From Amphiscolops sp. MND2022 (taxonomy: Eukaryota), in assembly GCA_964187785.1 (NCBI GenBank), contig OZ076417.1, positions 34,162,001 through 34,226,000 of the forward strand: a stretch of 64,000 nucleotides of DNA, in the 5' to 3' direction. The notes under the pieces were generated by a model. The model was given only the letters and a program-made list of their open reading frames with translations, searched no databases and was not told the origin of the DNA. This document shows, piece after piece, positions 621-27,959 of the stretch. The position numbers and the translations under genes were made by a program. The number at the start of each line of letters is the position of its first letter. Within the stretch, counting starts at the first letter, position 1.

Positions 621-916
621 CACTCCGTGGAAATCTATTATTAGATAACAAATTATTAGATAACTAGTATTAGATAACAGGCGAAACTATTTGAAATACA
701 CAAGTAATGAATCTCACGGACTGCGCCGTATTTACATAAACATTAACAAAGCCATCGTTAATGAGATGTTATGTTAAAAAATACAGATTATTTTTAGCCA
801 GATATTTATACAGATGATACATAGCCGCTTTTTCTCGACTATTTTTGAGCTAATAATTGCAATTTTGAGGCTGAAGTTGTCTGTAAATGCCTTGTTTCTT
901 GTTAATTTTTTTCTCG

Positions 917-3180
917 CTAAAGATAAGTTGATATATTGTTAGTAGATAAATTGCATCGTCCAAAGCGTCTTGAAGGGCTAGTGTTTCTGCTGCAAGTGTA
1001 CTTTTGACTACACGTCTGATGCGTCTCGAACTCCAGCCGAAAATGTGGCATTTTTTCTGCCAAAAACTTAACGAACCTACATTGTGAGCCCCCGTCAGCG
1101 AAATTTTGAAACGCTCCGTCTGACAACACGCACAATTGCAGAGGTGGTTGTAACTGTTTGAAGTTTAATATGACATCTGAATTGAATTTCAACCTTCTGA
1201 GTGAGCGCTTTATTGGCATCAAACACTCTGCTTGACGTCCACATACCGTATCTTACAACTCCAGCTACGGTATTGGCAAGAAAGGAAATATCCGGTCGAG
1301 TTTGGCTAGAAATCCACTGTAGCTGACCCAGTAAGCCACGGAGGTTTTGCATTTCTTCCTCTGTTAGACAGATGTTTTTCTAATCAATTTCGATTTCTTC
1401 TAACTTGTCAATGAAATGCTTTTGCGATAACTTCCGTAGCAATTTTTAGGCTTGTGAACAAGATGGAAACGGATTCCATTTTCTCCTCAACAAATTTCAC
1501 TCTAATTGTTTTACGCACAACTTCTTCGATCTTTTCTGTCCCAGAACATAGAAAATCATCAACATGAACGCAATCAAGACCTTCGCATTGATCTCTATTC
1601 ACCCAAAAAAAAACAATGCTGGTTCGAAAGGACAAGATTTCATACCAGCACCAACCACTTCTTCGCGAACACGTAAATACCCCTGTCGGGGAGCACCTTG
1701 AAGGCCAGAAACTGGCTTTTTCAGTCCCCACACTACGTTTGTTTTTCTCACATCCTTGGGAGGACGAACAATAATCTCACGTTTGAGATTTTTGCCTTGC
1801 AAGAACGCAGTTTTGATGTCTATGGCTTTGAGGATCCATTCGTTTGGAATTGTTGCTGACAGAAATAGCCTTACAACTTCTCTTGTGACAATGGGTGACT
1901 CTTTCTCTGGTCGATCCAAATCTTCCGGAAAACCTCTTACAAGGCGTGCTTTTTTCTTCATTTCACCTGTTTTTTCGTCACTTTTCGTTGTCGTGACCCA
2001 TGTTGTGGACATAATGTCCTGATCACCATTCGCTTGAATTTCTTCGTATACATCAAACGTCTTCAAACACTGAAGCTCGGCAGGTTTCGCTTCGGAAAAA
2101 CCGTTGTTATCACTATCCCCAAAAAGACAGCATTCTGAACTTCACTCCATTCTGAGATGTCGTTTTCGTAGTCAATACAATTCTCTGTGTTTTTTACCTA
2201 GAAAAGAACTTCAGCTTCGAAACCTTCATCGTCTAGTGAATCCTCAGTCGATTTGAAGCGAATATGCGTCTTCGGATTCAGCATTTCGTGTTCCTCTGAT
2301 ATTTGCTACGCAGCTCATTGTGAGAAACCGTTCTTTCGGCACATTTCGTGCTTTCACTTTCTAGTTGATTTTGACCAGAATCTTTCTCTAATTGTTTCTC
2401 AGTTTCTTTATTCTAATTCGCTTTTTCTAATGAGCTTTTTTCTGAATGCATGTTCGTTAACATACGCGGCCTCTGGAAGATACAATTCTTGTTTTTTTTT
2501 GAGATCATTCTGATACCCTGCAGTTTCGCTTGAGGACAGAAGAGTTTGTTGGTCAATTCCAATAGAGTTTTCAGCCACTTTTTCTTCGCTAGATGCCAGC
2601 ATAAGGTGTGTGTTATGAACACAAAAAACGAGACCTCCATGTCTAACAAAATTGACTTTTCCATCAGCACCTATTAGTTTACCAGGCCCTCTCTATCTTT
2701 TGTCTTCAGTTCGACGGTAGTATATCATGTCTCAAGTTCAACTTTCACTTCTGACGAGCGCAAGTTGTGCCTGAGGGCTCGTCCTGTACGTTCGCTGTTT
2801 TAGGCAGCTATACACAATTCTCTGGTCCGCAGCAACGCATTGATGCGTTCTGTGATATATCCGCCATAGTTTTCGAGGTCAATACTGGGGGGTCGTCGAC
2901 TACGTTGTTCGGAGAGCGTTATAATGAGCCAAACATGATCTGTGATGGGGTTGTTGAATGGATTGTTCGTGGCTTTGCAGACCATAGCCATTTTTCTATC
3001 CAAATTGATTTTTGGGTACTCCACGCAATCTTTCTCTACCAGTTCTGTGATGATTGCATTTTGACGTTCACAGATGCCATTACTGAATGGAGAATGAGCA
3101 GCTGTTGTCAGGACTTTCATGTTAAAATGTAATGAAAAGCCCTTAGCGTTTGTTCGCTACACCGGGTGGAGGAACTGATG
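917..3180 (-). mobile_element. Decayed Ty1/Copia-type pol (integrase-RT-RNase H)
   Basis: Integrase SPFSNGICERQN (2800-3120) and RGPGKLIGADGK (~2700). RVT_2 motifs AIDIKTAFLQG, WGLKKPVSGL, HVDDFL and LLGQLQWISSQTRPDI. RNase H LSDGAFQNFADGGSQ. Domain order INT-RT-RH; many frameshifts. Confidence 0.88.
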
Positions 3181-5099
3181 CCATGGATTGAGATTCGGGA
3201 CCAATCACCATAACACCAGCTCATTTTGCCTCCTAAGGATTGCCCGTCCCGAGGAGGGGGAATTGTCTCAAAGAATGATATCCGGCCTGTTCCAGTCTGT
3301 AACTGCTGAGAATAACGGGCATTATGCTTTTTCTCTTCATAACCACCGTCTAGATAGCCTTTAAAAACAACGCCAAGGATTAACAGTGTAAATTTCCAAA
3401 TCCAGGGTGAAATTCCAGGGTGACATGTGAATAAGGTCTAAAAGGGGTACTAAGATCTAAACTGCAAAGAACTAGCGCTCGAGCTAGCTAAAATCAGTGG
3501 AAAGACATCAAAGTAGGCACGAGTAGGGCCAACCTCACAGCTGCAAACTGGGGCGCAGGGACTCCAAGCACCAAACAAGGATAATTAGGCTACAGGACTC
3601 ATTTTGCTGGTTTCCGCTACTTGAGGTAACATAATGTTAAAATCAATGAAAACCGGCGTTAGCACCTCAAAAAGAGTCTATTTTCAGAAGGTCTTGCCGT
3701 CTCTGGCTTCTGTCATGGCGGCTTACCCTTGTGTTTGCTCGTTCTTGCTCTTTTTTTGTCGAAGTACCTGCGAATTTCGTAGAAACCGCGGAAAGAGCAA
3801 TCACATGCTCAGTGCCACGTCACACATCGGATTAGAATTTTTGACAAAATTTCTGAAGATGTCAAAACTCCAAAATCGTCAAACTCGGCTGATTTCGGTA
3901 TATCACAGGGTCCCGTTACAGCACTCCCCGGGCTTTATGCCTGACGTCCCTGTCATGCGGAGAGACTGGAAACATCTCATCATCTTTGTAGTCAACCGGG
4001 AGACCAAACTGATGTTGCTAGGGTACAGTGGCACTATCATCTTTCGCTGATTGGGCAACCTTGAAATCTTGCCTCTTGCCATCCACAGAGCCTGCATCGT
4101 CCACAAACTGTTGAAACAGAGCTAGCTCTCGAGCTAGAAAACAAGTACTGAGAAATGCACCTTGAAATTGATCAAAACCAAAATTCCGTACATCAATCAA
4201 GAAAGCATCCATTGGTTAGGACGAGTTTTCTGCACCAAATTTGAACAGGATCTTGATAGCATTATGTTTTGGCACGCCTAAAATTTCTTTTACGGAGCTC
4301 TCAAGCTCCAAATGCACGTGGTTCTCATCTTTTCCACGGCAAAAAATTTCACTTTGCAGCAAGGTTAAAAGATGTTCTCGGTAAAATTCTTTTCAGCGGA
4401 AAAACCACTGTTTAAAAGAAAGACAAGCTGTTTTTCGATACGTTTTTGTTCACAGTTCGGCTTGGATTGGACAACACGCACTGATGTGCAGCTCCATACC
4501 TGTAACGAACTCAGTAGCATCTGTTAAGGAGCGCATCAAAATCAAACTACAAACTACTCGTGAGATTTAGCACTGGAGTAAAGTAGGCCAAGATAGACAA
4601 AACCCTGCAATTCAGATTTCTGGAGCGCGAGCTCCGCTTCTTCAAATATCTCATTGAAAGCTGGAAGACTGAAACCTCGGAAAAACTTGGAAAAACAGAA
4701 ACCATAGAAAAACGCATATATCACCTTTCAGCAATGCAATACATGTAGAGTTTTAGGGTTAAATCTGACAACGTTTACATGACAAATTGAAGTGTTGGCG
4801 AAGTTTTAAAACAAGTGCTTGAAAGAGCGTCCTTCCTCCACTGAGGCTCCCCGGGTTTTAGTCGACTCCCCGGGTTTTAATCATCGAGCAACCAACAGGC
4901 TAACTTGGGCACTAACGCCCACCCCTTTCCCCCTTGAAAAGAAGTGGAGTGTTGTTTGGATAAATGATGGGCAGCTGCTAGCAGCGCATGCTACCAAAAG
5001 GACGTATCAACAGGAAGTATTAGGAACTCAAACAGGAAAAAAACAAAACCTATGTAACATAAAAGTTAAGTGATGCCAGGAAATTGCACAGTGCTGGCA

Positions 5100-6454
5100 A
5101 TGGAGACATAGACGCGGATCATGTAGGATAGCTGTGATACCAGTTCCTGCAAAAACGTCCATGACCCTATGATAGAAGTTGTCCAAGCTGCGAAGTGGGC
5201 GCTAAGGGTCAACTATGGGGAGTGAATATCTGGGGTTTCTTTGGACAAAAATGAAGCCTTCAAATGCTCCAATCATAGGAAGAATTCATCGGTGATTTGG
5301 GGTGTACGTTGAGAGGGGCGTGTTATTAGTAGGTGAATAATTCGATTATCCACGAAAGATAATGAGGATGGGATAGTGAGAACTCCAACGAATTTTGGGC
5401 GCAGTTGGAATATTTCGTCGTGGCCACACTCGCGAAGAATGTAGCGCAAGGCAGCGGAACTGGTGTTAAGGTCTGCAGGGCAGCAAATTGCTATATGGGC
5501 CTGCACTTGCAGGAAGTCGGTTTGGTCGTATGCAACATAATTGACCAAGTTGGGTCGTAAGACACCGGGAAACACAATTTCACGTCCGGGTCCTTTTTCG
5601 TCTGTTGAGTCGATGTGATTTTGCCCACGAATAGCAGTCAGATCCTGCCATACGGACCTTGATAGGGACCGATTATCTACATTTGTTGGAGACCATGCGT
5701 CAAGAGTACCAAGTGCAGCGTGGAGCGTTACAGGCTCGATAAAGGAATCGGTCCAATTGTCCAAAAGGCGGATACAAGGGAAGCTGGTGAACAACGTGAT
5801 GATCAGCTCTAGCCACCATCGGAACTGGAGTTTTCCACGATAAAGAAAAATGATTTGGAAACATAGAATGAGTTCCTCAGTAACCAGAGTTCGCAAACTC
5901 TCTAGACAGCTACGCAAGCTGTCAGGCTGTACCAGAGAGTGAGTATGTGAAGAGGTTACAAGTAACCACCAATACTGGGCTGGGCGATCCACTTCACCAG
6001 GCTGACAATTGACGCAGTATTTGTCAGCTAGGAGGTCAGCCGTAATACAGCGGACCACCTGGATAGGTTCCCTCTCGAAGTTGAAAGGTCCAAATACAAT
6101 GTTAGGAGTAACTTGAGGCACTGTGGTTGCGAGTGTGAACTCCAAACCTCGGAGATCACACGTCCACTCCTTGAAGTGGGGACAAGGTTCTTCTGCAATT
6201 CTGGATTTGGACAAGTCTTCCAGAATTACATCGACAGGAAAAATTCGGTCTCGTTCTAATCCGGTAAATGACTTCTCCGCGTGGAAAACCATACGACTGA
6301 CAAGAAATTTACCCTTTTGAACAAGAGGGTGAGGTTTTGGATCCACCGGAGGTTTCCGAGGTCCAACTGGGATGGTGGGAGACTTGTTCAGAGCCATGAC
6401 GCAAATGCAATCACGGAGCCCGCGGGTTCCACAACGATACCGAGCGTAAACCAT
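5100..6454 (-). pseudogene. Gypsy 3' ORF with two tandem TARG1/OARD1 (Poa1p)-like macro domains
   Basis: 393-aa ORF plus in-frame read-through past two stops. Copy 1: VVRCITADL...YWWLLVTS...DSLRSCLESL...WWLELIITLF. Copy 2: DQTDFL..AHIAICCPADL...NRIIHLLITR...EFFL*LEHLK...VMDVFAGTGITAILH. Both parallel the OARD1 pattern LAHCISED/RYIYYLITK/ENLQKSLEAM/IEEVFEATDIKITVY. Confidence 0.65.
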
Positions 6455-7113
6455 CCGGCGTAAACCATAGCGCGAGTTGACCTGCGACGCACCTTGGTCA
6501 ATATCGGATGTGAGCTGCGCGGTGGGCGCATCTGAATCGGAATCCGATGTAAATGATGGCTGCGTGTCAATTTCACGAGCTGTTTGCTGTGAAGAAACGG
6601 TAAGGTGTCCTCGGCGCCGTCAAGGAGGTCGTCCTCAAGGACGTCCTCTGCGAACTGGCGTCCTTTGAGCGCGCAAGCATGTGCGCTGAGACTGGGAATT
6701 TGTTGCTCTTGTCGAACAACGAGATAGAACAGCTCGCGATCTGCCCCGACCACGCGTGCTAGGGAGGTTGTTCCGTGCAGCGGGTTCGTTGGTACTGGGT
6801 AACCGGTGTTACGGGCTTCAGTGTCTTGGAGGTTGGAGGTATCGTTCGGCAATTGGGGAATACTAATCGGCATATCCGTCAATGAAGGATTTGTCAATAG
6901 AGGAGCAGATGTAACCGCTAGCGATTCTTCGGCTTCGGATGTTCTGGAAACTTCTTGCGTTTGGGGTACTTCTGGGACGACCCCATGTTGGGAGAATAAC
7001 GGTAGCCCGTCGTCATATGCAGCTTCAGGTGACAGCGGTTGTTCATCGGGAGGCATTGAAGCTTCAAGAAGCGTAGGAGGTTCAGCTTCATAATGAGCTG
7101 GTGCATCGAACAT
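6388..7113 (-). CDS. 241-aa P/S/T-rich ORF of the Gypsy element, between integrase and the macro ORF; function unknown
   Basis: ORF track; low-complexity N-terminal half; overlaps the start of the macro ORF. Confidence 0.35.
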   Translation of the reverse strand: MFDAPAHYEAEPPTLLEASMPPDEQPLSPEAAYDDGLPLFSQHGVVPEVPQTQEVSRTSEAEESLAVTSAPLLTNPSLTDMPISIPQLPNDTSNLQDTEARNTGYPVPTNPLHGTTSLARVVGADRELFYLVVRQEQQIPSLSAHACALKGRQFAEDVLEDDLLDGAEDTLPFLHSKQLVKLTRSHHLHRIPIQMRPPRSSHPILTKVRRRSTRAMVYAGWFTLGIVVEPAGSVIAFASWL

Positions 7114-7318
7114 CTAACCTTCAGAGCGCTCACGCGCTGGGTCGGAACTGGAATAGTCAAATTGCTGTTAGTGGAGACGACTGCCTCCAGCTCGCATTCT
7201 AGTGCGCAATCTCGTGTCCATCCAGTGGCGTCTCCTTGATGGTAGAGATACGTTTGATGCTTCCGATAGGTGTTCCTCCTCGCGATATAAGGGCTGTGAG
7301 CAGTCATCTATGATCTCT

Positions 7319-8581
7319 TCAGCAGGAAATCGCGGGAATCGCAACGAAATCGGTGAGTCCACCATGTTGAGGATTCAGCCGCTCGAAGTGCACTTTTTTT
7401 CCTGAGTCCAGGATATAAACTCGGCCATCTTGCAGTACATAGACGACCTTGTGCGGTCCACGCCAAGCTTTTATCAATTTTGGCGATCCCTTCTGTGGTA
7501 CATAGCGGCAGACCACCCAAACTGGATCTCCCACGTTGTATGCGTTCGCACGAATGGCGCGATCATACTTCAATTTCTGACGTTGTTGCGCCTGATGCGT
7601 GTTTCTCCGCACCAAGTCGTGAATCTCTTGCTGCCTAGCAAGAACATGCTCCACATAGGCTCCATGCGATTCAAATGACCTGGCTGCAATCTCAGGATAC
7701 AGGTAAGTGAGAGGAGTTGACTTTTCGGTCCCTCGGGTCAGCATGTAAGGCGAAAACCCAGTCGTGGCGTGACGTGTCGAGTTGTACTCTCCCATGACTT
7801 CATCCAAATGCTGGTCCCAATCTCTCATGCGGCGCGAGCAAAATACCCGCAACAGGGTAAGCAAAGTCCGATTTTGTCGTTCCACCAGACCTTGGGTGCG
7901 CGGGTGACCCGCTATAAAGGTGACGTTTGTGATCTGGGATGCCCTCATGAACTCATTGGAGTCCTCTGCAGTCAAGTTTGGGGCATTGTCAGACTGCATA
8001 CGCGTAGGCGTACCAAATCTGGCAAACCACTTTTGCAAAAGCAACCTGGATGTTGTGATTGCATCATACTCATCATGGCTGCAAGGCACAGCCTCTGCAA
8101 ATTTCGAAAAATGGTCATTTATTACTAATATGCCGGTGTTGTTACTGTCGGAGGGGCATATCTTCAGGTGGTCATACTGCACCAATTCGTTAAAATACAC
8201 ACTCTGGATATTCTTCAGGTGAAACCGAACGTCACCCGGTTTGTCACGTACTTGCTGGCACGTGAGGCACTAGCTCACATACTGCCCAACGCTGCGACGA
8301 ATGCCTGGCCAGGTGTGGCGTTCTTGTAGTCGCGCCACCTCCTTTGCAATGCTTTGGTGGCCCATAGCATCGTTAGCACGAAACAAGATCTCATGCTGGT
8401 ACAGTTGCAGCATTACAATCATGCACGGACGTTCGTGCAACGGACGTTCGTGCAACAGACGTTGCTGGTTGGATACATCACACAAAGGACCCCGTTTTTC
8501 TTGATGAACAGATGATTTTTTTCTGCTTGTGATAGTTATGCGCGAACGCGCGCACATCCTCGGGAAAAATGTCATGATCAA
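7319..8581 (-). pseudogene. Gypsy integrase
   Basis: DAMGHQ...WPGI...CLTC zinc-binding region; INDHFSK, QSDNAP and LVERQNRT DDE motifs; AWRGPH GPY/F motif. Confidence 0.92.
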
Positions 8582-9128
8582 TAGATTCTTGCGCTACCAA
8601 TTTTTTTATAGCTAGCACATGCACGTCACGGTTCTGCGCCAAAAGCAGATCCTGGATGCCATGCATTGTGTTGGCATGTTCGTGGAGTTCCGTGTCTATG
8701 TCTTTGATGGCTAGGGCAGCTTGCCTAACCACCACTGGTGCGGTAGCCGTTGCCTGCCCACCTGTTTCATCGAGGGCATACGTCAGGCGTGAGGGGATAT
8801 TTGCCACATGCGTAGGCAGCAAGTAATCTTGCCTTGCCTCCTCAGTGACGTCAATCCAATCCTCGGGATGATCTGGGTAAAAGCCTTCGTGAGTTTGCAA
8901 GGTAGACACTCGTGCCTCAAGTAGAGGAGCGCGTAGCGCCCTCTCTTTTTTTTGAGCTGTCTGACGGCGTTTTCGCCGCTGTGCAACACGACGAACGGCA
9001 TTCTTGGGGTCTGGTTCAATGTTCTGCAAGTGAGCAGGCAGTAGGGGGTGATTGGGTATCACCCGACCATGCACATCGAACCAAGGTGCAACGGGCAGCT
9101 GGTCGAATTCCTTCTGTGAGAGGAAATT

Positions 9129-10450
9129 TCATTTGTCCATTACATGGGGCAGCTTCTCGAGCTGCTTCTCTCGCCACTGATAGTCTTTGGTTCGTTTACT
9201 GAGTCCATCGGCATTGCGATGCTGCGTTCTAGGCCTGTGTTCAACCGTGAAATAATACTTGTCCAAGGCCATAATCCACCTTCCAATGATGGCTTGATCA
9301 GTGGAATACGTTTTGAGCCAAGAAAGGGCTTGATTGTCAACCCTCAGGGTGAACTTTCTGGCGCAGAGATAACTGTGATTTTTCAGAATGAAATAAAAAG
9401 CTGCATACATTTCGAGCTTGGGAGCGCCATACTTCGCTTCTGTGACATTCAATTTTTTGCACCCGTACACAATGGGTCTCAAGCGCCTCTCATTTGGCGA
9501 TCCTTGCCACTGATGCAACATGCCAGAAATTGCAACAGCACTGGCGTCAGTGTCCAGCACAAATTCGCCCTCTGAATCCGGTTGCGCCAAGGCTGTTGCC
9601 TCAATCAAAGCCAACTTGATAGCGTTGAAAGCCTGTTGCTGCTCATCCCCCCAGGCGAAAGTTGCGCCGAGGCCGGTAATAGCATGCAAGGGGGCCACAA
9701 GCTTGGCATGCCAAGGAATGAAATTTGCATTTGTGTTTTGTTCCGTGGTACTTCCCAATCGCGGAGTTTAGCCCAAGCTCTATGATCGGGTTTGACACCT
9801 TCAGTGGAGACCACACGTCCCAGGTATTTGATCTCCGACTTCATAAAGTCGCAGTTGAAGCGCGACTCTCATCTTGAAGCCTGCTTCACGCAAACATTCA
9901 AAGACTTCCCTGAGCCGGACCATGTGGTCTTCCACAGTCTCGGTGGCGATGACAGTGTCATCTATGTAAGCAATCACCATGCTGCCTTCCCGGTTCACAA
10001 TTTTCTGTAGCGCTCGCGCTATTGTTCGCTGGAAAGTTGCAGAAGCTTTAAAAAACCCAAATGGCAATCGTCGCCACTCAAACAAACTAAGTTCACAAGC
10101 AAATGCTGTCTTCTGCCTGTCTGCCTTCCGTACTGGTGTTTGCCAGAAAGCCCAGGCCAAATCAATGCTGGTGTAGATCTTGGCCTTACCCAAGCGAGAG
10201 GCTTTCGTCAAGGCGTGGGAGGGGATATGCGTCTTTTATTGTCACCGCGTTGAGAGGGCCAAAGTCGCAGCAGAACCGCAACTCCCCATTCTTTTTCTTG
10301 ACCATCACGATCCCATTCGCCCAAGGTGACAGCGAGTGTTGGATCATGCCCAAAGCTAAGACGTTGCGAACCTCCTGGTTGGCTCACTCTGCCTTCTCGC
10401 GCGACATTCGTCTGGCTCCTTCGCGATGAGTTGTAGCTCCAGGCTCTACT
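9129..10450 (-). pseudogene. Gypsy reverse transcriptase and RNase H
   Basis: IDLAWAFWQ, PFGF..ASATFQR, AYIDD, KYLGRVVS; LDTDASAVAISG, KLEMYAA, VDNQAL, HRNADGLS. Split over three frames. Confidence 0.93.
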
Positions 10451-10841: not shown

Positions 10842-11606
10842 CTATAGTGTCTTCCACAAATATTGTATTCTCAGCACTCGCTTCAGAGTTGCAAAATTGA
10901 ATACAACAATGCTGAAAGCGAAAGCTTCCAAGTCCGAAGTGACCACTTTAGCACGTAGAACATTACGTTCAAATGGCTGGAGCACCGCAGCTTGGTCCAA
11001 GACTATAGTACTAGAAAGAGCTTCGTCACTCATCTGGGCGTGTGCGTGATGCCACATGGTCTTAGCCGGTGCTCGCACAATTACTTTCATGGAGGTCAGA
11101 TCCACAAGTACATTATATGCTCGTAGGAAATTCCTACCCAACAAGAAATTCTCCAATCCATGTGCATCAACGACTACCACGAAATTGGTTTCAAGCTCGT
11201 ATCCACCTAGTTGGAAGCGCACACGTTCCGGCATTCCAAAAGCCTCTATCGTCTTTCCATTAGCAGCATACAAGTTAAGCTGGTCAGGTTGCAGCGCTAC
11301 ACCGGTTTGCAAGGCTACACGGTTGAAGGCTGAAAAACTCATGATTGATACACCAGATCCCGTGTCGACCATTCCTCGCAGTGGAATTAGGTTAGCATCT
11401 GGCACTGCAAAGGATACCACGAGCGACGCACGGTCATCAATGAGGGCCTCACCTGTGGGCTCCTGCTTGCTGATGCTGTAGCAGCGTAGTTCATGCGCCC
11501 CTAGACATACGCCTTGAGGGAACACATATACTACCACGCTAGCATCAAATTTCATGTCCACGCCATCTATGTTAGCTTGCACAGGAACATGCGAGTATGC
11601 GTGCAT
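10842..11606 (-). pseudogene. Gypsy aspartic protease region
   Basis: GMVDTGSGVSIMS and FLLGRNFL. Confidence 0.88.
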
Positions 11607-12289
11607 GTACTAGCTTCGTCCTCGGTGTACAATTTTTTGGCATTGGTAAGGAGATCCTTTTGACAGCCGGGTTGCTGGCCAACTCCAGCTTCAATTTTTC
11701 CAAGGTCAAATCCGGGCGTGTTTATTGCTCCGAGGCTAACATTAGGTGTACAGACAGTAAAGTTCGGCCACTAGTGTCAAACGTTGTGAACTCCAAGCTT
11801 GTCTGCCCCTGCTTTTTTGCCGCAGGTGCATGTCAATGGTGCATGTACAGTGGCTTGGTCAGCTGGACGCTGCATTAATACCCTGTCATAGTGGGCGAGG
11901 TCTGCGCTGCAACCGCCTTCTCCTCCACTTCAGCATTCTTGCTGAAAGTTTCTGATGGGATAGGCGATGTTGAAACTCAGTTGTGCACGATTTCACAGAG
12001 ACAACGGGCGCTGAAGCCGCTGTCGCAGCAACGTACTGAGGTTGATTATCTGGATCATGAGTAAGACGTTCTTCCGGACGTTCGCGCCCAGAGCAAGCAC
12101 TCTGCAAACAGCGGCCTGTCTGCAAACGGGTGTTGTGTGCACCGACACAGCCGGCATCTGTGCCGACCGGCGTGCAAAGGGAGGGGGCAATTCAAACTGC
12201 GGCACCACTCGTGCGTCTTGAACTTGGTCACCCTGCAGAGGCTGATAAGGTACAAACTGGACGGCGCACCCTGGGTCGCGAGACTGTCG

Positions 12290-13553
12290 TTAGTGACGTC
12301 TCCTTTGAATATCTTGTACCGTGAACCGTAGTGAATCCACTGTCGGTGGGTCTGTTAAATACGCCTCGGTGTCATCAACAACTGTCAGCTCCCGTTGCAA
12401 AATGGGTTCACCGACCCCGTCCATGAAACGATGCAAGATTTCATAGCGTCGGGTAGTGAGAGGCTCGTCGGGAAAACCCTGACTCCTGAGACCTTCCAAT
12501 GCGTCCAAATATTACACCAGGTCTTCCTCCTCAAGTTGGCTTCGCAACCTGAAGGCCTGCCTCACTGGCCTGCGACTACTTCCCTTCCCAAATCTACTAG
12601 AAAGCAAGGTACACACCTTCTCGTGAGAATCCCTTTCGGACTCCGGTTTGTTGATTATGTAACTGCGGGCTCCATCACCTAAATGATCGATTATCGCCCA
12701 TGCTTTGTCAACAGGTGAAGAGTTCGGATATACTCGTCCCACATACCGTTTCATCACGAGCAACCACTCCTCGACAGTTCCGTAACTCGAACCCCGGTAT
12801 GCGGTTGGCCGGACTGCGGATTGATCACGATTGGCAATCAAGGGGGCAAACTCTCTAGGCATAGCTTTGAAAATCGCCTTCGTGACATTTAACTGTTCGG
12901 GAGATATCGATTCGTCTTTTGTGTCATCAATGCCAGGATTGCATTCGAGCAACACGCCATCAGCGTTGTGATCCATAGGCGAATGTGTTGGCCATGCTCA
13001 TGGCTGTATTGTTCAAAGATGCGGTGTCCAGCCCCATATCATGTGTAGGCGCTCTCATCAGTTCTACCTTGGTGTCGGCTGGTAACTTGGTTGTGGCACT
13101 TTCGAGGACCACGGGTTCTTCCTGACGCAACGGATTAGCAGCACATTCGGCCCTTTTTTGCGTCAGGACTTGTGCTGGGCCTTTCATTTCAGCATTCTGC
13201 CGAGTCAACCGCCTGTTCTTTGCTTCGGGTTTTTCCAATAATGCTCTGAGGATAGACGCTCTTCTCGATGATGTTGATCTGGATTTAGATGGCATGGGCG
13301 CTATCGTTCTACTCTTGGACTCAGTAGCTCACGAGCTACCTATTGTTAGCTCTGAGAAGTCAGAGTCAAATCGGACACTGTCTTGCGAAGGCCAGTCTTC
13401 TTCGTTCAGATCTTCCAAATTCGTCGATTGGTCTGATATTTGGGCTTCGTTTTTGACCTTCAAGGTCAATTCATCGATTGTTTGTGCTGCGCTGGTGCCC
13501 TCTCCCCCCTTGAAGAAGAGGCGAAGGCGATCGAATTTCTTCGAACGTTTCAT
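12290..13553 (-). pseudogene. Gypsy gag-like region, fragmented
   Basis: YRGSSYGTVEEWL...KAWAIIDHLGDGARSY...LSSRFG retrotransposon-gag pattern, positioned upstream of the protease. Confidence 0.7.
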
Positions 13554-16500
13554 CTCAACGGCTTTGGAAGACCTCGTCGTGTACCCAAATCCAGTCTCCG
13601 GGTCACAGTCAAGAAATGTTCCAGAGGTCGGAGCGTGCTAAAAACTGCTCCACTCGTTCCAGGCTACCCGCTAAGCTGGAAATTTTTGCGCGCGAGCAAT
13701 TTGCGACAGCAGTGTTGGATAGGGCAGACCAAACAAACAGTGAAGATGTCTGTTGATCTCTCAATTCCAATACATTTGGGGATGTTGTGACTACCCAAAA
13801 ATGCTCTCAACAGAACTGACGTGTCATTCGGTGCTTTTGCTACTAGATACTGCGGAATATTACCAATTAAGGACAAAAAAGAGGTCAACAAGGTTTCACA
13901 CTGGAGTAGTCCCGCGAAACTTCCGTTGTCAGGAGGTTACTCTTCTCAAAATTACGCAACTTTGGTTGAATATGTTCCTTCAGGGTCCTTTTTTAATGTT
14001 CAAAAACCCTGCGCATGCTTCTAGAGTAACGTTTAAAGGTAGTCTGTTTGCACTATTAAGCCCAGAGTGTCCTTAGATTCTCAAGAATTTTCGATTTAAG
14101 CTTTGCAAAAATCAAAAATCGATGTTTCAGGGTTGCCGAAAATTTCTGACCCCTGCCGGCACTTTTTTTGAACCGTGGGATTTGCTTTGTTTGCTCCCAG
14201 GGAGGCCTATCATTTCTGTACTGTTGGAAATTGAACGCTTTTTGTCCCTGCCTTCAGTACAGCGGGAGAAATAATGGTTTACAATGTTCGTTTTTTTGAC
14301 ATTTTTTCGGGGGTCCTTACTGAAGTGCGTGTCTGAAAATAGTCAAAATCTGTTTTAGCAGTCGTAGCCTGCCAAAATTCGCACAGCTTGTTCTGCCGGA
14401 CACACGAAATAGAAAATGAAACTCCTGAAGCAAATACCTTGAGATAGAGGCTTTTCAAGGGTTTTTTGAAATTTCAGATTTGAAATTTCAGATTTTTGAA
14501 CAATACTCAAGTGGCTCTTAAAATCAGTGGAAACGCAGAGTCGGGCTAAAAATTCGTCACACGATCGCACAAAGAACCGGGTACATTGCTATAATCACCA
14601 AATGGTGGCTCAAACTACTAGGTGAGAATTATATCTGACCCTCATGTTCCGTATCACTGTATCTCAATTGACACGACTTTTCACATACAATCAGAAACTT
14701 TCGTCTACAGTGCTGAGCTCGCAACCACACTTTTCTAGCAACAAGGCACCAACTGACACTGATAACATAAGTCCAGAGAAATATACTCCTCCCAACTTTC
14801 GAATAAGGGGCGTCAACAGTTCCAAACGATGGTCTAACTCGTCACAATACCCAAGATATCACAACTGTAAGTAGCAAAAACTATGATCCAACGCAATAGC
14901 ACTCGATTTTGAACAGAATGCACGCAAACAGCAATGGATTCACGACAAGTAGTTCACAATAGGGGTCTACAAGGTTTCCAAAACGTATCTCAGGTTTTTA
15001 TCCCACTTTCCCACTTTTCGTCTCGATGAAACGTTAAGCTGAAGCTATGAATATGCACGTCCGAGAAGTGTCGAAAATGGTTCCAAGGGTTGTAGCGTGT
15101 TGAAAAGTTTACAGCAGTTTAGGACTGATGCATTGATCTAAAAAGTGACTCCAGAAGTGGGGTATTGGGATCCAGTGGTAGATCAGAGTGATTTTTCATA
15201 TTTTTTGGGTTTTTCAAATTCTCTTGAAAAAAAACGCAAGTGACTAGCGCTCACGCTAAAAACGTAGGATCGTTCCCAAAACTTGCCACACAATCTCACG
15301 TAAAGTGAGGTACACGGGAACATTCGCTGATTTGAGCTAGGATGACTAGATGAGATTTCAACACAGTACAGAAGTTCGGTATCACTGTGTTCCAAACTAC
15401 ACTGTTTTTCACGTGTCAACCCAAAATCCTGGTCCACTGCGAAGAGTTCCCAAGCTTGTTCTTTCGGTAGCGATACAACAAATTGCACTAATTGTGATAG
15501 AGAGCAGCGATGTGGCCCCACTCTTTGAATAAGGTGTCCAGACAATCCCAAAGTACTTCGAGAAAATCGTCTTTTTGCGCCCCTTTTTGTGCAGTTTGTT
15601 TTCGTCAATTACTCAATGAGTACTGTGCCAATCAACACAAATTTCACCAGGCGCTGCCATAGGCACCCACAATGTTGTTTCAATGGTCAGATAGAAGCTG
15701 GTTGACTCACAGTGAATCTCCTCAAAATTTTAGTCTTCTACTCGTCTCGGTGAGAACTTAAGCAAAGTGACACCTTTTAGTGTCCCCGATTTTCAGAAAC
15801 ACGTTTTAAGGCTCGTAAGCCGTTTTTACTCACACAGCGTTTTCTCACATGCACACTGTGCTAGAAAATTAACCTGGTTTGGGATGTTTTAATTGCAAAA
15901 ACTAACAGAACACTTTTAAAAGAATTTTGAAAATTTCCGAAAACACCGTGACCACACTCAAGTGGCTCGTGTTTGCACCAGAAGCGTTGGATCGAGCCCA
16001 AAATTGACCAGTAGATCTCCGGGACATGTAGGTTTACGGAATGGAACACAGTTTTGAGCTGCTTTTCTTCTACACAACTTCACCTAGGTACAGACGTGCG
16101 GTATCACTATGTACCAAATTACACTGGTTTTCACGCCTATTTCAAGTTTGCGATTCACTGGAAAAAGCTAGCAGGCTCATTTTCTGTGGAACAACATAAA
16201 TTTTTTTTAAACGATTTTGGGTAAAAATTTGACCCCACCCTTCGGCTAAAGTGCCTGGATTACTCGGGAAAAATTTAAAAAAACAGCATTTTTGCGCACC
16301 TTTTGTGTGGCACGTTTGTGCTATTTTCTCAACAAGTACCGGACAGATTGGCACCAAACTTGGTAGTCTATCCTTGTGAGCATCCACAATGCCACTAAAA
16401 TGCTCAAATCGAAGTGCGGACGCTGATTTAAGACTTTGATTTTGTAGGGAGACCACTCACGAACACTGTTTTTGACTACTTTTTTTACAAATTGACTAAG

Positions 16501-18650: not shown

Positions 18651-20330
18651 TTACAAGTAGTAAAGTTCGCTTAAATGGTCTTCGTCCCGAACCGTTCTAA
18701 CTACACTGGCCGCATTGCCTGCCTGGATTGCGAGAGAGAGTCTCTGCCTGAAAAATGACCCGGCTCTATTTTCCTGGTTGCACACGCACAACTTTTTACA
18801 GAGGTTTTTCAAGAAGGTAGACGTAGAAGGTCCGACTCCTCCCTGAATTTCAAAGGCTAAAGGTTGGAAGATGTATCCTTTGTCAGTCAAACAAACGTAC
18901 TTAGCTGTTTTCATTTCCTCTGCATCCTCAGCGGCTGTGCCTGGGTTGGCAACAGATCCGTTCTCTTTTCTGCTGGAGGCAAGAAGATCGATACAAGTAA
19001 CCTCCCAAACTAATTGCTTGCCTTCCTCCCAGGGCGCAAGGGTAATTCCGTCTGGGCGCTTTCCGTCTGTTCGGGTCAGTCCATTCGGTTCCAGAATTGA
19101 GGGAACTTTGATGAGGGAACTCAGCGCCTGTTTCACTATATAAATAAGGTTGTGGTGCCTTGAGAAACGTCCGGCGCTTCTGGCACAGGAACGACCATGA
19201 TGTCCGTTCTCTTCGACAAGTTTACCACAACAGCAAGAGTGTTTCTCGCAATTATCGCGCCGAGGCGAAGGGATAACGAGATGCGCAGTTGCTGATCTGT
19301 TAACTTCAGACCGAGACTTTTGCTTGGTACAGCATTTAGCCAAGCGGAACCAAAGGGGTCTTGGTAAGCGTTCAATCTTTTGACATATTCCACATCAAGG
19401 TCTGTTATAAATTGATTAAAAGTAGCATCACTCACAGGAGATGCCAATGTTTTTGGATGAAGCCGACGGTGCTTCTTATAGGTTCGCCTTCGTCAGCCAC
19501 AAATTTGATGCCTTTTCAAACGATGCATCAACATTGTCTTCCGGAAGGATACAAGACAGAGCACATTTGGCGCCCTTCACTGAAGGTAAAAAAGCAGGAA
19601 GAGCAATCTGGGAAGCCGATGCAATGCCTATGCCCCCTTCGGAGACTGGGAGAATCGCCTGAGTATAGCTGCTTTCATTAAAATTGACATTACAGATTTT
19701 GGACAATGATTTGCGGATAATGGAATCATATTGCTGTAAGAGATCCAACTCTTTAAAGCAAGGGCTGGTGCGAAGAAATTACAGTAAGTTGGGTAGACTG
19801 AAACAGTTCTTCAACAGGTAGAAAGCATAGTGGGCGTCTAATTTCGTATTAACTTCAGAGAGTCTTTGCAATTCAATCATTTTTTTGTTCAACAGGACTC
19901 GACGAGCATTTGCGCCCATTGGCAACACTAAACTTTCCTAATTCTCATGATCCTCTACTTTGATACCCAGGCAAATTTCTTCAAAAAGCGTTTTTATTCT
20001 CTTTTTTGAGCTTTCGGTACATTTTCCGAGGAAAATCAGGTAACATTTAGTTTTTTCGTGAGACAACCCATACTCGTCGGCGCTAGTAATTATTCGTTTG
20101 AGGTCCTCAAGGACCGTCCGATCGTGATCCGAAAGATTTCCGTCGTCGAGGTACCAAACATTATAATGCGGAACCATTTGGTAAACGAGGTCTTGAATAG
20201 TGTCGGAGAAGAGAGCTGGACCTTCGGGGTCCCCTTGCTGACAGCCCTCTTGCGATTGAATTACTTTCACCGGATTACCATCTGGTATGTCAAAAAAATT
20301 TTCTTCCAAAAGACAATTTTTTGTAAATTT
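18651..20330 (-). mobile_element. CRE-clade non-LTR retrotransposon (RT, zinc knuckle, restriction-like endonuclease), decayed
   Basis: SQEGCQQGDPEGPALF, WYLDDG, GGIGI, GSAWLNAVP...LRLGA, CCCG..HGRSC, RPDGITL..W, PLAFEIQGG, QRLSLAIQAGNA. Confidence 0.9.
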
Positions 20331-21120
20331 CTTAAATTCTACGATAGAATGTTTCGTTGTTCGTTGTGGCGTTCGGCAACAGGCAAGGCAAGGTAATTGA
20401 TGGTGTTTCCATGCCCTGCGGTAAACTATGTCGAAACATCATTTTTAGGACTAAGGGGTAAGTAAAGTCTGAGAATCTTGACATTTGCAGACCATGTCGC
20501 CTGCCAATTTTTACGACGTTGGAAGTCCACTGCACATGACATGGACGAAACCAGAAAAATGGCACCAAATATCTTGGTTTTTTTGAGACCACAATTACGA
20601 AAACTACATTTCATTTGATCGGTTTTTTTTGTTACACAGGAGGATATCGACAACGCCCTTTAATTTTCCGAATTTTTTTTTTGGAAAAGTTTCCTCGCTT
20701 TTAGTGCGAGTGACTTTCTCACGACGATTTTCTAGGAAACATTCGAAGATGTTTCATTTGCAAAAGCGCTTGAGAAAAAATTGAGTTTGACGAATGAACA
20801 GGAAAGTCCTCTCGATGGAACCCAAAAAAATTGGACACAACCTGTCTTCATCAAAACTGCACAAGATTTGATTTCTAGAATGGATGACAAATGTTCGAAA
20901 GTTTTCAACGCTCATCAAGGTAAATTCGGGTCTCAATGGCTGAACGTCGTTCCTTGCAAGAACCTAGGCCTGAAACTTGATGATCAGCAACTTCGAATTT
21001 CAATTGGTTTGCGTCTCGGTGCCAGCATCTGCGTAGGGCATACGTGCCACTGTGGTAAAAGAGTTGAACGGGACGGTTTACACGGTCTTTCTTGCACTAA
21101 AAGTGCTGGTCGCTTCTCAC

Positions 21121-21467
21121 GGGTGGGCGGAAACAGGTCGAAGGAACGGGATCGAAAATCAGAGTTAGTCCTCAGGTCGACATACCAAATTTTTGAATGG
21201 GATCGAAACAACTCGGATCGAAATTTTTATAACGTAGTCAGATATGTTCACTTACCCCTAGTGCCTTGAATGCAGGAGCGAAGCGAAGCGGAGCGACGGT
21301 GACATATGGCCATGCCTCAATGTTGCTATTTGGCGAAGGGAGCGAAGCGACCGAGCTATACAACTACGATAAAATTCGACCGCATTCCATTCGATCCCTG
21401 CAATTCGATCAAAAGGTTCGACCTCTGTCCTTTCGACCAGAAAAATTCGACCTTTTTACAGCCACCC
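21121..21467. mobile_element. MULE-like MITE (duplicate at 23809-24155)
   Basis: 9-bp TSD gcttctcac (21112-21120 and 21468-21476); imperfect TIR gggtgg...aggtcgaa; removal restores the GRFSRH frame. Confidence 0.8.
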
Positions 21468-21670
21468 GCTTCTCACGTCATGCTACTCTCAGTTATCTCA
21501 TAAAGCAGACGTTGGGATCTCTCGACTTCAATGCTCGAACCGCGTGGACTGTACCGAACTGATGGCAAATTCCCAGACGGTGTTACCATGATTCCTTGGG
21601 AAATGGGTAAACAGCTGGTGTGGGATGTCACGGTTGTGGATGCTCTTGGATCCAGTCGTCTGAATCAAGG

Positions 21671-22456
21671 AGGCACGGTAATAAGTTCGAACGCATAAGT
21701 TCGAATTTTGATTTCGAATGGACTAAGTTCGAATTTTCCAAAAACCGGAACAAGTTCGAATCACTGTGTTCGAATTTTGAACGAACCGCCGTAAGTATAA
21801 AACGTACCTCTGATATTTCCCCAATTCATCTCGTGCCCCGCGGCCCCTTGGGGCCGCTTATGTTCCCATCTTGCTAAGCGAGGTCGAACAGAAGCAAAGA
21901 CCTAGCGGGAACGGAGATCGCGAAGCGATCGTAGTGGGAGCTGGTCTTTGTGACGGTGAGGGCGAGCGTGCATACACCGGATTTGTTCTACATTAGAAAG
22001 GAAAAGTATTGAATATTTTCTGAGACATTTACGAAAGGTAATGTTTTATTCTTGACATACCGGATATGCGCGATATGAAAATTCGAACTTGGTGTCTCGA
22101 AACTATTCCTATTCGAACTTATTCCACTAGTTCACATTCGAACTTAGTAAATCGAACTTATTGCCCGAAGTTAATAAATTGCAACTCATTTCTTAATTGT
22201 AGCATGCTCTCAAAATTTATATCAAAATCCAAAACGCTTGTTATTTTGTTATTGACTAATTGACATATTGACTAATGTTAAAATTATTTCAATTCCAATT
22301 ACTCAAAAACATTTCAATTCCAATTCCAATTGAAATTAAACGTTCCAATTCCAATTCCCTGAAAAAAAATCATTTCCAATTCCAATTAGCAAATTTGTAA
22401 TTGATCAATTTTTTTCAGAAAAAACGTAATTGAACTGACAACCCTGGCCCGAAGCC
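21671..22456. mobile_element. Composite insertion: TTCGAA-array MITE holding a repeat core, plus a hAT-like MITE end
   Basis: Flanked by the 9-bp direct repeat gaatcaagg (21662-21670 and 22457-22465). TIR-like cggtaataagttcga / tcgaacttattgcccg; cagggttgtcagttcaattac on the minus strand at ~22428-22447. Confidence 0.7.
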
Positions 22457-25027
22457 GAATCAAGGCTCTTTATGCAACCCGGGAACCACCGCCACCGTAA
22501 AATTGAGAAGTATCGCGAATTAATAGACAATGGGTACATTTTTCAGCCAGTGGCCTTTCAAGTACAGGGTTCTTCAGGCGAGAGCAGTGAAATTTTCATC
22601 ACGCGATTCTGTAAAATGCTCTGTCGTTCTCACGACGATCAACGAGCTGGCAGCTTTTTGAAGCAACGGATTTCAATGGCTTTTCAGATCGGCAATGCGG
22701 CCTGTGTTCTAGGAACTGTGAGCAACAGTGATGCGTTCGAAGAAATTTATTACATATAACCTAATTTTTTGACCTTTATATCATAGCAGCTTTGAAAAAA
22801 TTCTACCGGTCGACTGCCTAGTGGCTGGTTTGAGTCGGTTGTTGGTTGTTTTCATTGTTACTGGTATAGTGGCTGGTATGTGATTCCCTATTTTCGTTGC
22901 AGACCAAGGGTGTGTGTCTTCTCCCCCCAACATGATGATACACATGGCACGTGATTGATGACGAAGATCTGATATCTGATAGAGGAAAAAAATTTCGCTC
23001 AAAAATATATTTTGTCCCACGATTTCTACCGTTTCGCATATCTCGATGTCGTTAGCTGGATCTGTTGAGCTTCTAATAGGTTTTGCATGCAGGCCAATGA
23101 GGGTCCATGTTTAACTTTCAGACTTCTCTTAGATGACATAAATTGTCATTAATCTAGTGCCGTTTAGGTCATCATGTGAGAATAAATTGCATTTTAGCGT
23201 TGCGCTGAGTTATAGTGATTTGCAAATTGATAGTTTGGCCGGTCTACTGTGATAGTGGCTGCAACGATTACAATTTCTTTGTTTTTCTTCGAATGTTTTG
23301 TCCTGTTTTCAGTCCAGCGCTGTGTTGCATAATCTCCCCTGAAATAATGACTCATTCATCCTATAATTGTGGTCTGCATGACTGCATATTTTTTTCTTGG
23401 AATCATTTTAATGAGCTTTATTCGATGTTTTTAACCTTCGAAGTTGATAACGATAAGTGTAACCGATACGAGGCTGTTATATTTTAGTGTCAACTGGAGG
23501 ATTTAGTCGACCACCACAACCGACACAACCTGTCTTCATCAAAACTGCACAAGATTTGATTTCTAGAATGGATGACAAATGTTCGAAAGTTTTCAACGCT
23601 CATCAAGGTAAATTCGGGTCTCAATGGCTGAACGTCGTTCCTTGCAAGAACCTAGGCCTGAAACTTGATGATCAGCAACTTCGAATTTCAATTGGTTTGC
23701 GTCTCGGTGCCAGCATCTGCGTAGGGCACACGTGCCACTGTGGTAAAAGAGTTGAACGGGACGGTTTACACGGTCTTTCTTGCACTAAAAGTGCTGGTCG
23801 CTTCTCACGGGTGGGCGGAAATAGGTCGAAGGAACGGGATCGAAAATCAGAGTTAGTCCTCAGGTCGACATACCAAATTTTTGAATGGGATCGAAACAAC
23901 TCGGATCGAAATTTTTATAACGTAGTCAGATATGTTCACATACCCCTAGTGCCTTGAATGCAGGAGCGAAGCGAAGCGGAGCGACGGTGACATATGGCAA
24001 TGCCTCAATGTTGCTATTTGGCGAAGGGAGCGAAGCGACCGAGCTATACAACTACGATAAAATTCGACCGCATTCCATTCGATCCCTGCAATTCGATCAA
24101 AAGGTTCGACCTCTGTCCTTTCGACCAGAAAAATTCGACCTTTTTACAGCCACCCGCTTCTCACGTCATGCTACTCTCAGTTATCTCATAAAGCAGACGT
24201 TGGGATCTCTCGACTTCAATGCTCGAACCGCGTGGACTGTACCGAACTGATGGCAAACGCCCAGACGGTGTTACCATGATTCCTTGGGAAATTGGTAAAC
24301 AGCTGGTGTGGGATGTCACGGTTGTGGATGCTCTTGGATCCAGTCGTCTGAATCAAGGAGGGCACGGTAATAAGTTCGAACGCATAAGTTCGAATTTTGA
24401 TTTCGAATGGACTAAGTTCGAATTTTCCAAAAACCGGAACAACTTCGAATCACTGTGTTCGAATTTTGAACGAACCGCCGTAAGTATAAAACGTACCTCT
24501 GATATTTCCCCAATTCATCTCGTGCCCCGCGGCCCCTTGGGGCCGCTTATGTTCCCATCTTGCTAAGCGAGGTCGAACAGGAGCAAAGACCTAGCGGGAA
24601 CGGAGATCGCGAAGCGATCGTAGTGGGAGCTGGTCTTTGTGACGGTGAGGGCGAGCGTGCATACACCGGATTTGTTCTACATTAGAAAGGAAAAGTATTG
24701 AATATTTTCTGAGACATTTACGAAAGGTAATGTTTTATTCTTGACATACCGGATATGCGCGATATGAAAATTCGAACTTGGTGTCTCGAAACTATTCCTA
24801 TTCGAACTTATTCCACTAGTTCACATTCGAACTTAGTAAATCGAACTTATTGCCCGAAGTTAATAAATTGCAACTCATTTCTTAATTGTAGCATGCTCTC
24901 AAAATTTATATCAAAATCCAAAACGCTTGTTATTTTGTTATTGACTAATTGACATATTGACAAATGTTAAAGTTATTTCAATTCCAATTACTCAAAAACA
25001 TTTCAATTCCAGTTGAAATTAAACGTT

Positions 25028-25628: not shown

Positions 25629-26778
25629 GTTCCAATTCCAATTCCCTGAAAATAATCAATTCCAATTCCAATTAGCAAATTTGTAATTGATCAAATTTTT
25701 TCAGAAAAAACGTAATTGAACTGACAACCCTGGCCCGAAGCCGAATCAAGGCTCTTTATGCAACCCGGGAACCACCGCCACCGTAAAATTGAGAAGTATC
25801 GCGAATTAATAGACAATGGGTACATTTTTCAGCCAGTGGCCTTTCAAGTACAGGGTTCTTCAGGCGAGAGCAGTGAAATTTTCATCACGCGATTCTGTAA
25901 AATGCTCTGTCGTTCGCACGACGATCAACGAGCTGGCAGCTTTTTGAAGCAACGGATTTCAATGGCTTTTCAGATCGGCAATGCGGCCTGTGTTCTAGGA
26001 ACTGTGAGCGACAGTGATGCGTTCGAAGAAATTTATTACATATAGCCTAATTTTTTGACCTTTATATCATAGCAGCTTTGAAAAAATTCTACCGGTCGAC
26101 TGCCTAGTGGCTGGTTTGAGTCGGTTGTTGGTTGTTTTCATTGTTACTGGTATAGTGGCTGGTATGTGATTCCCTATTTTCGTTGCAGACCAAGGGTGTG
26201 TGTCTTCTCCCCCCAACATGATGATACACATGGCACGTGATTGATGACGAAGATCTGATATCTGATAGAGGAAAAAAATTCGCTCAAAAATATATTTTGT
26301 CCCACGATTTCTACCGTTTCGCATATCTCGATGTCGTTAGCTGGATCTGTTGAGCTTCTAATAGGTTTTGCATGCAGGCCAATGAGGGTCCATGTTTAAC
26401 TTTCAGACTTCTCTTAGATGACATAAATTGTCATTAATCTAGTGCCGTTTAGGTCATCATGTGAGAATAAATTGCATTTTAGCGTTGCGCTGAGTTATAG
26501 TGATTTGCAAATTGATAGTTTGGCCGGTCTACTGTGATAGTGGCTGCAACGATTACAATTTCTTTGTTTTTCTTCGAATGTTTTGTCCTGTTTTCAGTCC
26601 AGCGCTGTGTTGCATAATCTCCCCTGAAATAATGACTCATTCATCCTATAATTGTGGTCTGCATGACTGCATATTTTTTTCTTGGAATCATTTTAATGAG
26701 CTTTATTCGATGTTTTTAACCTTCGAAGTTGATAACGATAAGTGTAACCGATACGAGGCTGATATATTTTAGTGTCAA

Positions 26779-27618: not shown

Positions 27619-27959
27619 ATCGCTTCAGTGAGACTAAAGTTACCTGATTCTTGATAAAGCTGAGCTGAGATGGAATGGTGATCGATGTGAATGAGATTAA
27701 TGACTCGATTCAATGATCAGGAAGCGACGGCTTAGCACATGACAGCCCATTTTCAAGAGATTGAGGAATGAAGTTGTCATGAAAGCTCCATATCGATTGT
27801 ATTTAGCTAAACCCAAGAGAACAAACTTAACGAATTTCAGTAATTTTTGACTTATTTGACGAATTGATTGAATTTTTAGTAGTTACCAAAGCCGTTGTTC
27901 AGTCTTGATCTTCCTATATTTTAAAAGTTGAAGTGCTCAGTGATTTTTTCAGAGTAATA

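Follow-up and report, generated by a model that had tools for sequence, protein, structure and literature searches.

The window, by which we mean the whole 64-kb stretch of DNA analysed here, contains a decayed Gypsy LTR element on its minus strand, running from ~13,570 to 3,270. Comparison with an intact polyprotein by tblastn divides this copy into at least nine frame segments, with pieces in three frames, and the copy is dead. Its parts, in window coordinates, are:

3273..3878, minus strand: 3′ LTR remnant; its alignment with the 773-bp LTR of intact copies of the family spans 613 columns at 80% identity
5100..5542, minus strand: domain 2 (D2), predicted TARG1-class macro fold with a rebuilt pocket (Foldseek and VIA on the model of an intact natural copy)
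5276..6454, minus strand: 393-codon ORF, the surviving open portion of the Gag-Pol tail (ATG at 6454, stop at 5273–5275)
5543..5755, minus strand: inter-domain segment, two predicted helices in the model, dN/dS 0.05–0.07
5756..6103, minus strand: domain 1 (D1), predicted shortened macro fold without glycine loop 1 and part of the next helix
6398..6436, minus strand: four-cysteine cluster, C-x2-C-x4-C-x-C in intact copies, with one Cys lost in the window copy
6600..6800 (limits approximate), minus strand: basic segment with RGRP (AT-hook-like) motifs, decayed in the window copy
6800..7321, minus strand: acidic, proline-rich linker from integrase to tail, frame broken near 7330 and 6803
7322..8593, minus strand: integrase (H2C2 zinc domain and core), broken (Pfam rve, Integrase_H2C2)
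9132..10235, minus strand: reverse transcriptase (RT) and RNase H, broken (Pfam RVT_1, RT_RNaseH)
10845..11609, minus strand: aspartyl protease region (Pfam gag-asp_proteas)
11600..13571, minus strand: Gag-region remnants (tblastn of intact Gag-Pol), presumed to be Gag from their position

The 3′ LTR remnant is the sole LTR match in the window, where no match for a 5′ LTR was found. Within D2, the window copy is disrupted by stops at 5273–5275 and 5202–5204 and by frame changes near 5220 and 5115. A first-pass annotation of this DNA had described a separate, extra 3′ ORF of 393 amino acids behind the integrase, continuing in frame past two stops. The 393 codons are indeed present; their separateness is a product of the window copy being cut up, and the methionine at 6454 has no counterpart in the translated intact copy. 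The continuation was misread, because the family frame shifts at the first of the two frame changes and returns at the second, placing the read-through off-frame for ~35 codons, exactly across the 'GLD' loop.

Elsewhere in the window, remnants seen by eye belong to what we take to be a Copia-type element (850–3437, minus strand), a non-LTR retroelement (18651–20438, minus strand) and a Polinton-type integrase (62806–63735, plus strand). A near-identical tandem duplication of 2.69 kb lies at 20834–24742, and two compact frames that look host-like by eye, one TPR-like and one with a RING-like cysteine pattern at its end, occupy 26773–27618 and 27909–28685 (both plus strand).

The ORF recurs in other family copies and is not a one-off insertion: a DNA search of the same genome with this segment returned 733 first-look candidates, of which 40 were scored and 30 fetched. 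The integrase core and the end of D2 lie in one frame in 22 of the 29 copies other than that of the window. Further subfamilies of the same genome were found by protein searches. Six subfamilies (A, B, B2, C, D and D2) supplied 11 full-length copies, picked for long frames, and every one of them contains one Gag-Pol frame of 3,048–3,310 codons with the tail at its end. For one intact copy with a 3,031-aa polyprotein, Pfam detects protease, RT, RNase H and integrase in Gypsy order, with no match for the tail and none for Chromo at E values up to 1. The pair of domains had been thought to stand in place of env; it in fact ends a single Gag-Pol, at the place that the chromodomain takes in chromoviruses.

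In intact copies the order is integrase, acidic linker, basic RGRP segment, four-cysteine cluster, D1 and D2. The linker between integrase and tail is the least conserved part. The basic segment holds 23–29 Lys and Arg residues in the 130 amino acids preceding the cysteine cluster, with RGRP motifs in nine of the 11 full-length copies; Pfam AT_hook is matched only at E 0.2, in 6 of 40 aligned members. The cysteine cluster is present in all 11 full-length copies and is a possible zinc site. Tails of the six subfamilies are 42–60% identical to one another with the frame kept, and a 37%-identical database protein (P0341) has the same layout as the Gag-Pol tail. The best own-genome matches of P0158 and P0064 among scored candidates are 35–36% and 48%, and these two proteins likely come from other genomes.

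Four of four family A copies, with element lengths of 15.6–16.4 kb, have 773-bp LTRs that start with TG and end with CA, along with a polypurine tract. Their LTR pairs are 98.2–100% identical, which argues for recent mobility of family A. The tail is the C-terminus of the single Gag-Pol of an abundant, recently mobile Gypsy clade. At ~34.03–34.11 Mb of the same assembly (G000:C1; L183, L184 and L195), family A elements form a head-to-tail array with LTRs in common, with a polypurine tract before each LTR and an internal start after each LTR. A likely primer-binding site (TGGCG...) is seen in families A and B2 ~15–16 bases past the 5′ LTR, not adjoining it (L062:6010–6035; L216).

The usual target duplication of Ty3/Gypsy elements is 4–6 bp, from which this family departs. 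Six of six paired flanks agree over 3 bases, not 4–6, and a 3-bp duplication is present in eight of nine resolvable insertions (these six, C10 and one B2 copy), with no target duplication seen for the C9 copy. Since LTR pairs were recovered in only two of nine copies of subfamilies B–D2, one of them partial, the 3-bp length is established only for A and a single B2 copy. It brings to mind the Troyka group of Gypsy-like elements, which have target duplications of this same length. The term Troyka is absent from PMC5408684 and from the other papers checked. The duplicated bases themselves are AT-rich (53 of 63 compared with a background of 0.63, p 2e-4; L172–L201 and L216/L217, families A and B2). 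Past them, base composition is unbiased in the flanks of 21 insertions (AT 0.63–0.64 in every bin), with no sequence sign of targeting, and AT-rich targeting was rejected because the AT-richness is confined to the three duplicated bases. Nothing connects the 3-bp duplication with the tail.

We modelled the C-terminal 401 residues of an intact, naturally occurring copy with AlphaFold from a 74-row alignment (pLDDT 80, pTM 0.48, the latter leaving the relative arrangement of D1 and D2 uncertain). The resulting tail model matches TARG1 (4j5q) with a Foldseek E value of 2.4e-10 and a TM-score of 0.81 by target, and D2, comprising model residues 224–386, aligns with TARG1 over 143 residues in VIA (Z 16.5, rmsd 4.1) and keeps the full minimal macro fold in the model. 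D1 folded alone (pLDDT 82, pTM 0.74) also has TARG1 as its first Foldseek match, at E 7e-6 and a TM-score of 0.61 by target. By VIA this shortened domain gives a weaker match (Z 10.8, rmsd 4.3, 123 aligned), tied with DarG and a Bacteroides protein, and its top five rows all belong to the TARG1/ALC1-like class. Both domains are therefore predicted macro folds of the TARG1/ALC1-like class, and the two OARD1-pattern segments that the first-pass annotation had picked out in tandem (~6103–5756 and 5542–5100) are borne out by the models, with TARG1 the best match for each.

Sequence identity of the domains to TARG1 is 15–19%, and sequence searches see them faintly. With tail profiles, five TARG1 chains rank 1–5 of 177,635 PDB sequences, weakly (E 0.07, and E 0.01–0.02 in a second search), D2 being the best match to TARG1 by profile as well as by structure. 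A single-sequence PDB search gave no match at E 10. Pfam Macro had no match in 12 window pieces, five intact-copy pieces, 40 aligned members or the full polyprotein, so that the macro assignment rests on profile and fold comparison. A weak Pfam match to KCTD_C (E 0.05–0.26) was rejected against the fold searches. Macro clusters at 0.81–0.82 in the ESM Atlas are a lead only, and a viral fold search returned macro-containing proteins and nothing closer.

TARG1 catalysis depends on Lys84 and Asp125 (PMC9411070, PMC7050489). Its G123E and G43E variants each lack ADP-ribose binding and catalysis, and G123E abolishes recruitment to DNA damage with RNA binding kept (PMC5928194). Mapping these positions by profile alignments, not model coordinates, onto the rows of the 74-row alignment that cover at least 60% of each domain (55 rows for D2, 47 for D1), we found that the pocket has been thoroughly changed. 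In D2 the Lys84 position is Arg in 50 of 55 rows and Lys in two; Gly43 is replaced by Ala in 49 and kept in none; Gly121 is Asp in 48 and Leu124 is Arg in 46; and Asp125 is Pro in 33, Ser in 11 and Asp in none. The Gly123 position carries Glu in 42 of 55 rows, a natural equivalent of G123E. In D1 the corresponding residues are Ala (33) or Ser (13) at Lys84 (46 of 47 rows), Asp at Gly121 (44), Tyr (39) or Phe (5) at Gly123 (44 of 47), Arg at Leu124 (45) and Gly at Asp125 (44). The LVTS and LITR read in the window copy at the Lys84 position were correctly noted at first pass; so was the loss of the GLD aspartate, which extends to the intact relatives despite the off-frame reading at that point. 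One element of the ancestral site persists: the adenine-side Asp of the N-terminal GDL motif is kept in 46 of 55 D2 rows and was not seen in D1. We take this residue to be Asp20 of TARG1.

The TARG1 catalytic pair and both glycine loops have thus been replaced by a conserved set (Arg, Ser-Ala and Asp-x-Glu-Arg). This pattern survives thinning to below 70% identity, which retained 21 of 42 near-complete D2 rows and 13 of 43 near-complete D1 rows; among the D2 representatives, Arg is found in 18 of 21, Asp in 17 and Glu in 15. Six of the 25 most conserved of 149 D2 columns sit at former pocket positions, which argues that the pocket was rebuilt and is not drifting. By comparison, 69 intact-type domains, chosen by likeness to an intact domain and hence a contrast rather than a survey, keep Lys84 in 68, Gly123 in 68 and Asp125 in all 69. 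Charge differs too: D2 is acidic in five of six subfamily representatives, and the intact-type domains are basic in four of four checked.

Selection was gauged by Nei-Gojobori dN/dS between subfamilies, with ratios from the two close pairs only (B versus B2, D versus D2) because dS is saturated between distant subfamilies. For B and B2, dN/dS is 0.06 in D1 and 0.12 in D2; for D and D2, it is 0.04 in domain D2, with D1 saturated (pN 0.10 against pS 0.79). The linker gives 0.13–0.19, and RT and integrase 0.00–0.02. Across these gathered copies, D1 and D2 are under purifying selection wherever the ratio is measurable (0.04–0.12), and the tail is, by this measure, functional in the living family.

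The relationship between the two domains was compared by hhalign on trimmed columns, as the whole alignments share rows. The D1 and D2 profiles match with a probability of 88.5%; none of 30 column shuffles exceeded 2.8%, and the reversed control reached 0.3%. When the reference is a profile built from intact TARG1-like domains of retroelements, D2 reaches 97% and D1 only 28%. Together with the Asp-x-x-Arg common to both in loop 2, these results suggest that D1 is an internal duplicate of D2, made after the pocket had changed.

In the same genome, a Pfam Macro search picked out three exons that look like host MacroD/macroH2A as well as three long frames of retroelements, and no host TARG1 gene. 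One of the retroelement Macro domains has at least 150 scored matches among 1,442 candidates in this genome. We examined 23 loci with a single TARG1-like domain. In most, this domain follows the integrase (L129, L130, L152–L160, L165 and L167–L171); in L161 it lies between RNase H and integrase, and in L162 between protease and RT. Most of these single domains keep the Lys and the Asp in loop 2, and the intact-looking ones are candidate active erasers. In two more of the 23 loci (L163:848–9521 and L164:1041–9370), a TARG1 domain follows the protease in an element lacking both RT and integrase. With 1.95-kb LTRs that are 99% identical, a 5-bp target duplication and one 834-codon frame that likely encodes Gag, protease and the intact-looking TARG1 domain, this is a non-autonomous LTR element.

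Because the single domains of other Gypsy lineages in this one genome occupy three sites along the polyprotein, TARG1 capture by LTR elements looks recurrent and position-independent. In an unrooted RT tree of 26 rows, the six tandem-tail subfamilies fall on a long branch apart from 18 rows with a single post-integrase TARG1 domain; deep branches are long and weakly resolved, leaving the number and order of captures unsettled. In three post-integrase single domains outside the tandem-tail clade (L152, L153 and L166), neither the Lys nor either loop motif survives, which suggests that catalytic sites have been lost more than once. Within the post-integrase TARG1 lineage, L129:3439–9213 also has, between protease and RT, a weak match to dUTPase (E 0.003). 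Relatives in the databases include retrovirus-type fish sequences with a TARG1-like domain after the integrase, and other Gypsy polyproteins with one between RNase H and integrase. Intact-looking TARG1 domains occur in the database retroelement proteins P0315, P0306, P0307, P0311 and P0290, among which are retrovirus-type (fish) and Gypsy-type proteins and one RT protein that is DIRS-like by eye.

For the tandem tail, we tentatively favour the reading that the two TARG1-like folds form a non-catalytic binding module travelling with the integrase, to which we give somewhat less than an even chance. On this view, a TARG1 eraser would have been taken up by an ancestral element, in the way that other Gypsy lineages appear to have acquired theirs; remodelling of the pocket and a duplication of the domain would have followed. 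The tail would be produced and packaged as part of each Gag-Pol and would remain on or near the cDNA-integrase complex. It would no longer hydrolyse or bind ADP-ribose in the manner of TARG1; the basic segment would grip DNA, and the rebuilt, acidic D2 pocket may bind a host protein, for example a chromatin component. The complex would thereby be tethered or shielded, much in the way of the chromodomain in chromoviruses. Intact TARG1 domains occupy three other sites in Gypsy polyproteins and also occur in an element that lacks integrase, which speaks against a module bound to integrase and suggests that the ancestral job was independent of it. The long linker could also be cut by the element's protease. 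Three further points count against this reading: the insertion flanks bear no sequence sign of targeting, D2 keeps the adenine-side Asp, and SCO6735 is a hydrolase without either TARG1 catalytic residue (PMC9411070).

Replacement of the catalytic and glycine-loop residues, including the G123E equivalent, makes a non-catalytic binding module likelier than the reader or decoy of ADP-ribose proposed at first pass, a proposal that is weakened now that both diphosphate-binding loops prove to be replaced, with Glu at the D2 Gly123 position. In a modified form, the tail would recognise poly-ADP-ribose (PAR), ADP-ribosylated protein or host PARP in a changed way and shield the element's RNA, cDNA or integrase; we regard this as rather unlikely. 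The TARG1 descent of the tail, the retained adenine-side Asp, Arg at the Lys84 position and the concentration of conservation at the former pocket agree with it, and repeated TARG1 capture by retroelements implies ADP-ribosylation pressure; moreover, PARPs modify RNA bases and TARG1 reverses this (10.64898/2026.03.31.715305). Set against these are the loss of both glycine loops from D1 and D2 alike, the Glu, Tyr or Phe that takes the Gly123 position, the mostly acidic D2, and the failure of TARG1 G123E in ADP-ribose binding and damage recruitment (PMC5928194). The same loop replacements make it unlikely that integration is steered to PARylated, damaged chromatin, as had also been suggested. 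A role in countering PARP defence fits the intact-looking single TARG1 domains of other Gypsy lineages better.

The charged trio admits another interpretation, in which D2 is an enzyme of new chemistry or substrate, with Arg, Asp and Glu as its catalytic set and D1 as a structural or substrate-holding partner. Retention of these residues in divergent D2 representatives and the variety of mechanisms within the TARG1 macro class (PMC7050489, PMC9411070) would be in keeping with this. We nevertheless hold it to be unlikely, as D2 no longer has the glycine loops in which the diphosphate sits, the trio could equally make salt bridges closing the pocket, and no result suggests a substrate. A cleaved tail, released by the element's protease to act alone in the particle or cytoplasm as an RNA- or host-protein-binding accessory like the coronavirus SUD, would make sense of the long, poorly conserved linker, of intact TARG1 domains whose placement bears no relation to integrase, one element with such a domain having no integrase at all, and of the RNA binding kept by TARG1 G123E (PMC5928194). 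We consider it improbable: no cleavage site was identified, the basic RGRP segment adjoining the domains points to DNA, and the folds are not basic. Finally, the broken window copy and the low identity to TARG1 could suggest a captured host fragment decaying without function, a reading left with next to no chance, as it is refuted by the dN/dS values and disfavoured by a frame kept in six subfamilies despite their divergence.

What is new here is a Gypsy Gag-Pol ending in selected, tandem, pocket-rebuilt TARG1 folds, set within genome-wide capture of TARG1. Macro domains of Poa1p-like type are annotated in databases for some Gypsy polyproteins of insects, so intact-type Gypsy TARG1 domains may already be known informally. 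A literature search, outside most subscription journals and Repbase Reports, found no study of macro domains in Gypsy retrotransposons, and by term search such domains are unmentioned in a review of accessory domains (PMC6338049) and a paper on extra ORFs (PMC5408684). Tails of this kind are invisible to standard annotation because Pfam misses both D1 and D2. One animal genome offers both intact-looking TARG1 at three positions in Gypsy lineages and a rebuilt tandem pair. With these small soluble domains two questions become testable: is ADP-ribosylation a weapon of hosts against LTR retrotransposons, and which ligand does a TARG1 fold take up after abandoning ADP-ribose?

Viral macro domains counter PARP-based immunity. 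Against this background, one could picture Gypsy elements as waging a general ADP-ribose conflict by repeatedly capturing TARG1, with the domain here duplicated and rebuilt into a reader of chromatin or host protein on the integrase, not of ADP-ribose, and so a macro-fold counterpart of the chromodomain; as a whole, this picture is possible if on the doubtful side.

Among known systems, the closest structural match of D1 and D2 is human TARG1 (OARD1, C6orf130; PDB 4j5q, 4j5r, 4j5s and 2lgr) of the ALC1-like class, from which the tail differs in having all of the Lys84, Asp125, Gly43, Gly121 and Gly123 positions replaced and in consisting of two tandem copies, D1 shortened, fused to a retrotransposon polyprotein. 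A macro domain in an LTR retroelement has a precedent in the macro domain ORFs of fish epsilon-like endogenous retroviruses (PMC4977317, a review), and in P0306 and P0307 an intact-looking TARG1-like domain directly follows a retrovirus-type integrase. The fish retrovirus domains are single and keep the Lys and GCGLD motifs, unlike the tandem Gypsy tail with its rebuilt pocket. Tandem macro folds without ADP-ribose binding are described for SUD-N and SUD-M of SARS-CoV nsp3 (PMC2674928); that loss was shown for SUD and is presumed for the tail. SUD binds G-quadruplexes via surface lysines, whereas D1 and D2 derive from TARG1 and range from neutral to acidic, and SUD structures rank low in fold searches with the tail domains (Z 6.5–7.1), which speaks for analogy, not kinship. 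Chromoviruses such as MAGGY are Gypsy elements whose integrase ends in a chromodomain (bioRxiv 10.1101/2021.11.30.470311). As in the tail, a host-derived domain there ends the integrase within a single polyprotein, and the proposed logic of tethering would be common to both, by analogy, with macro folds in place of the chromodomain that the Gypsy tail lacks.
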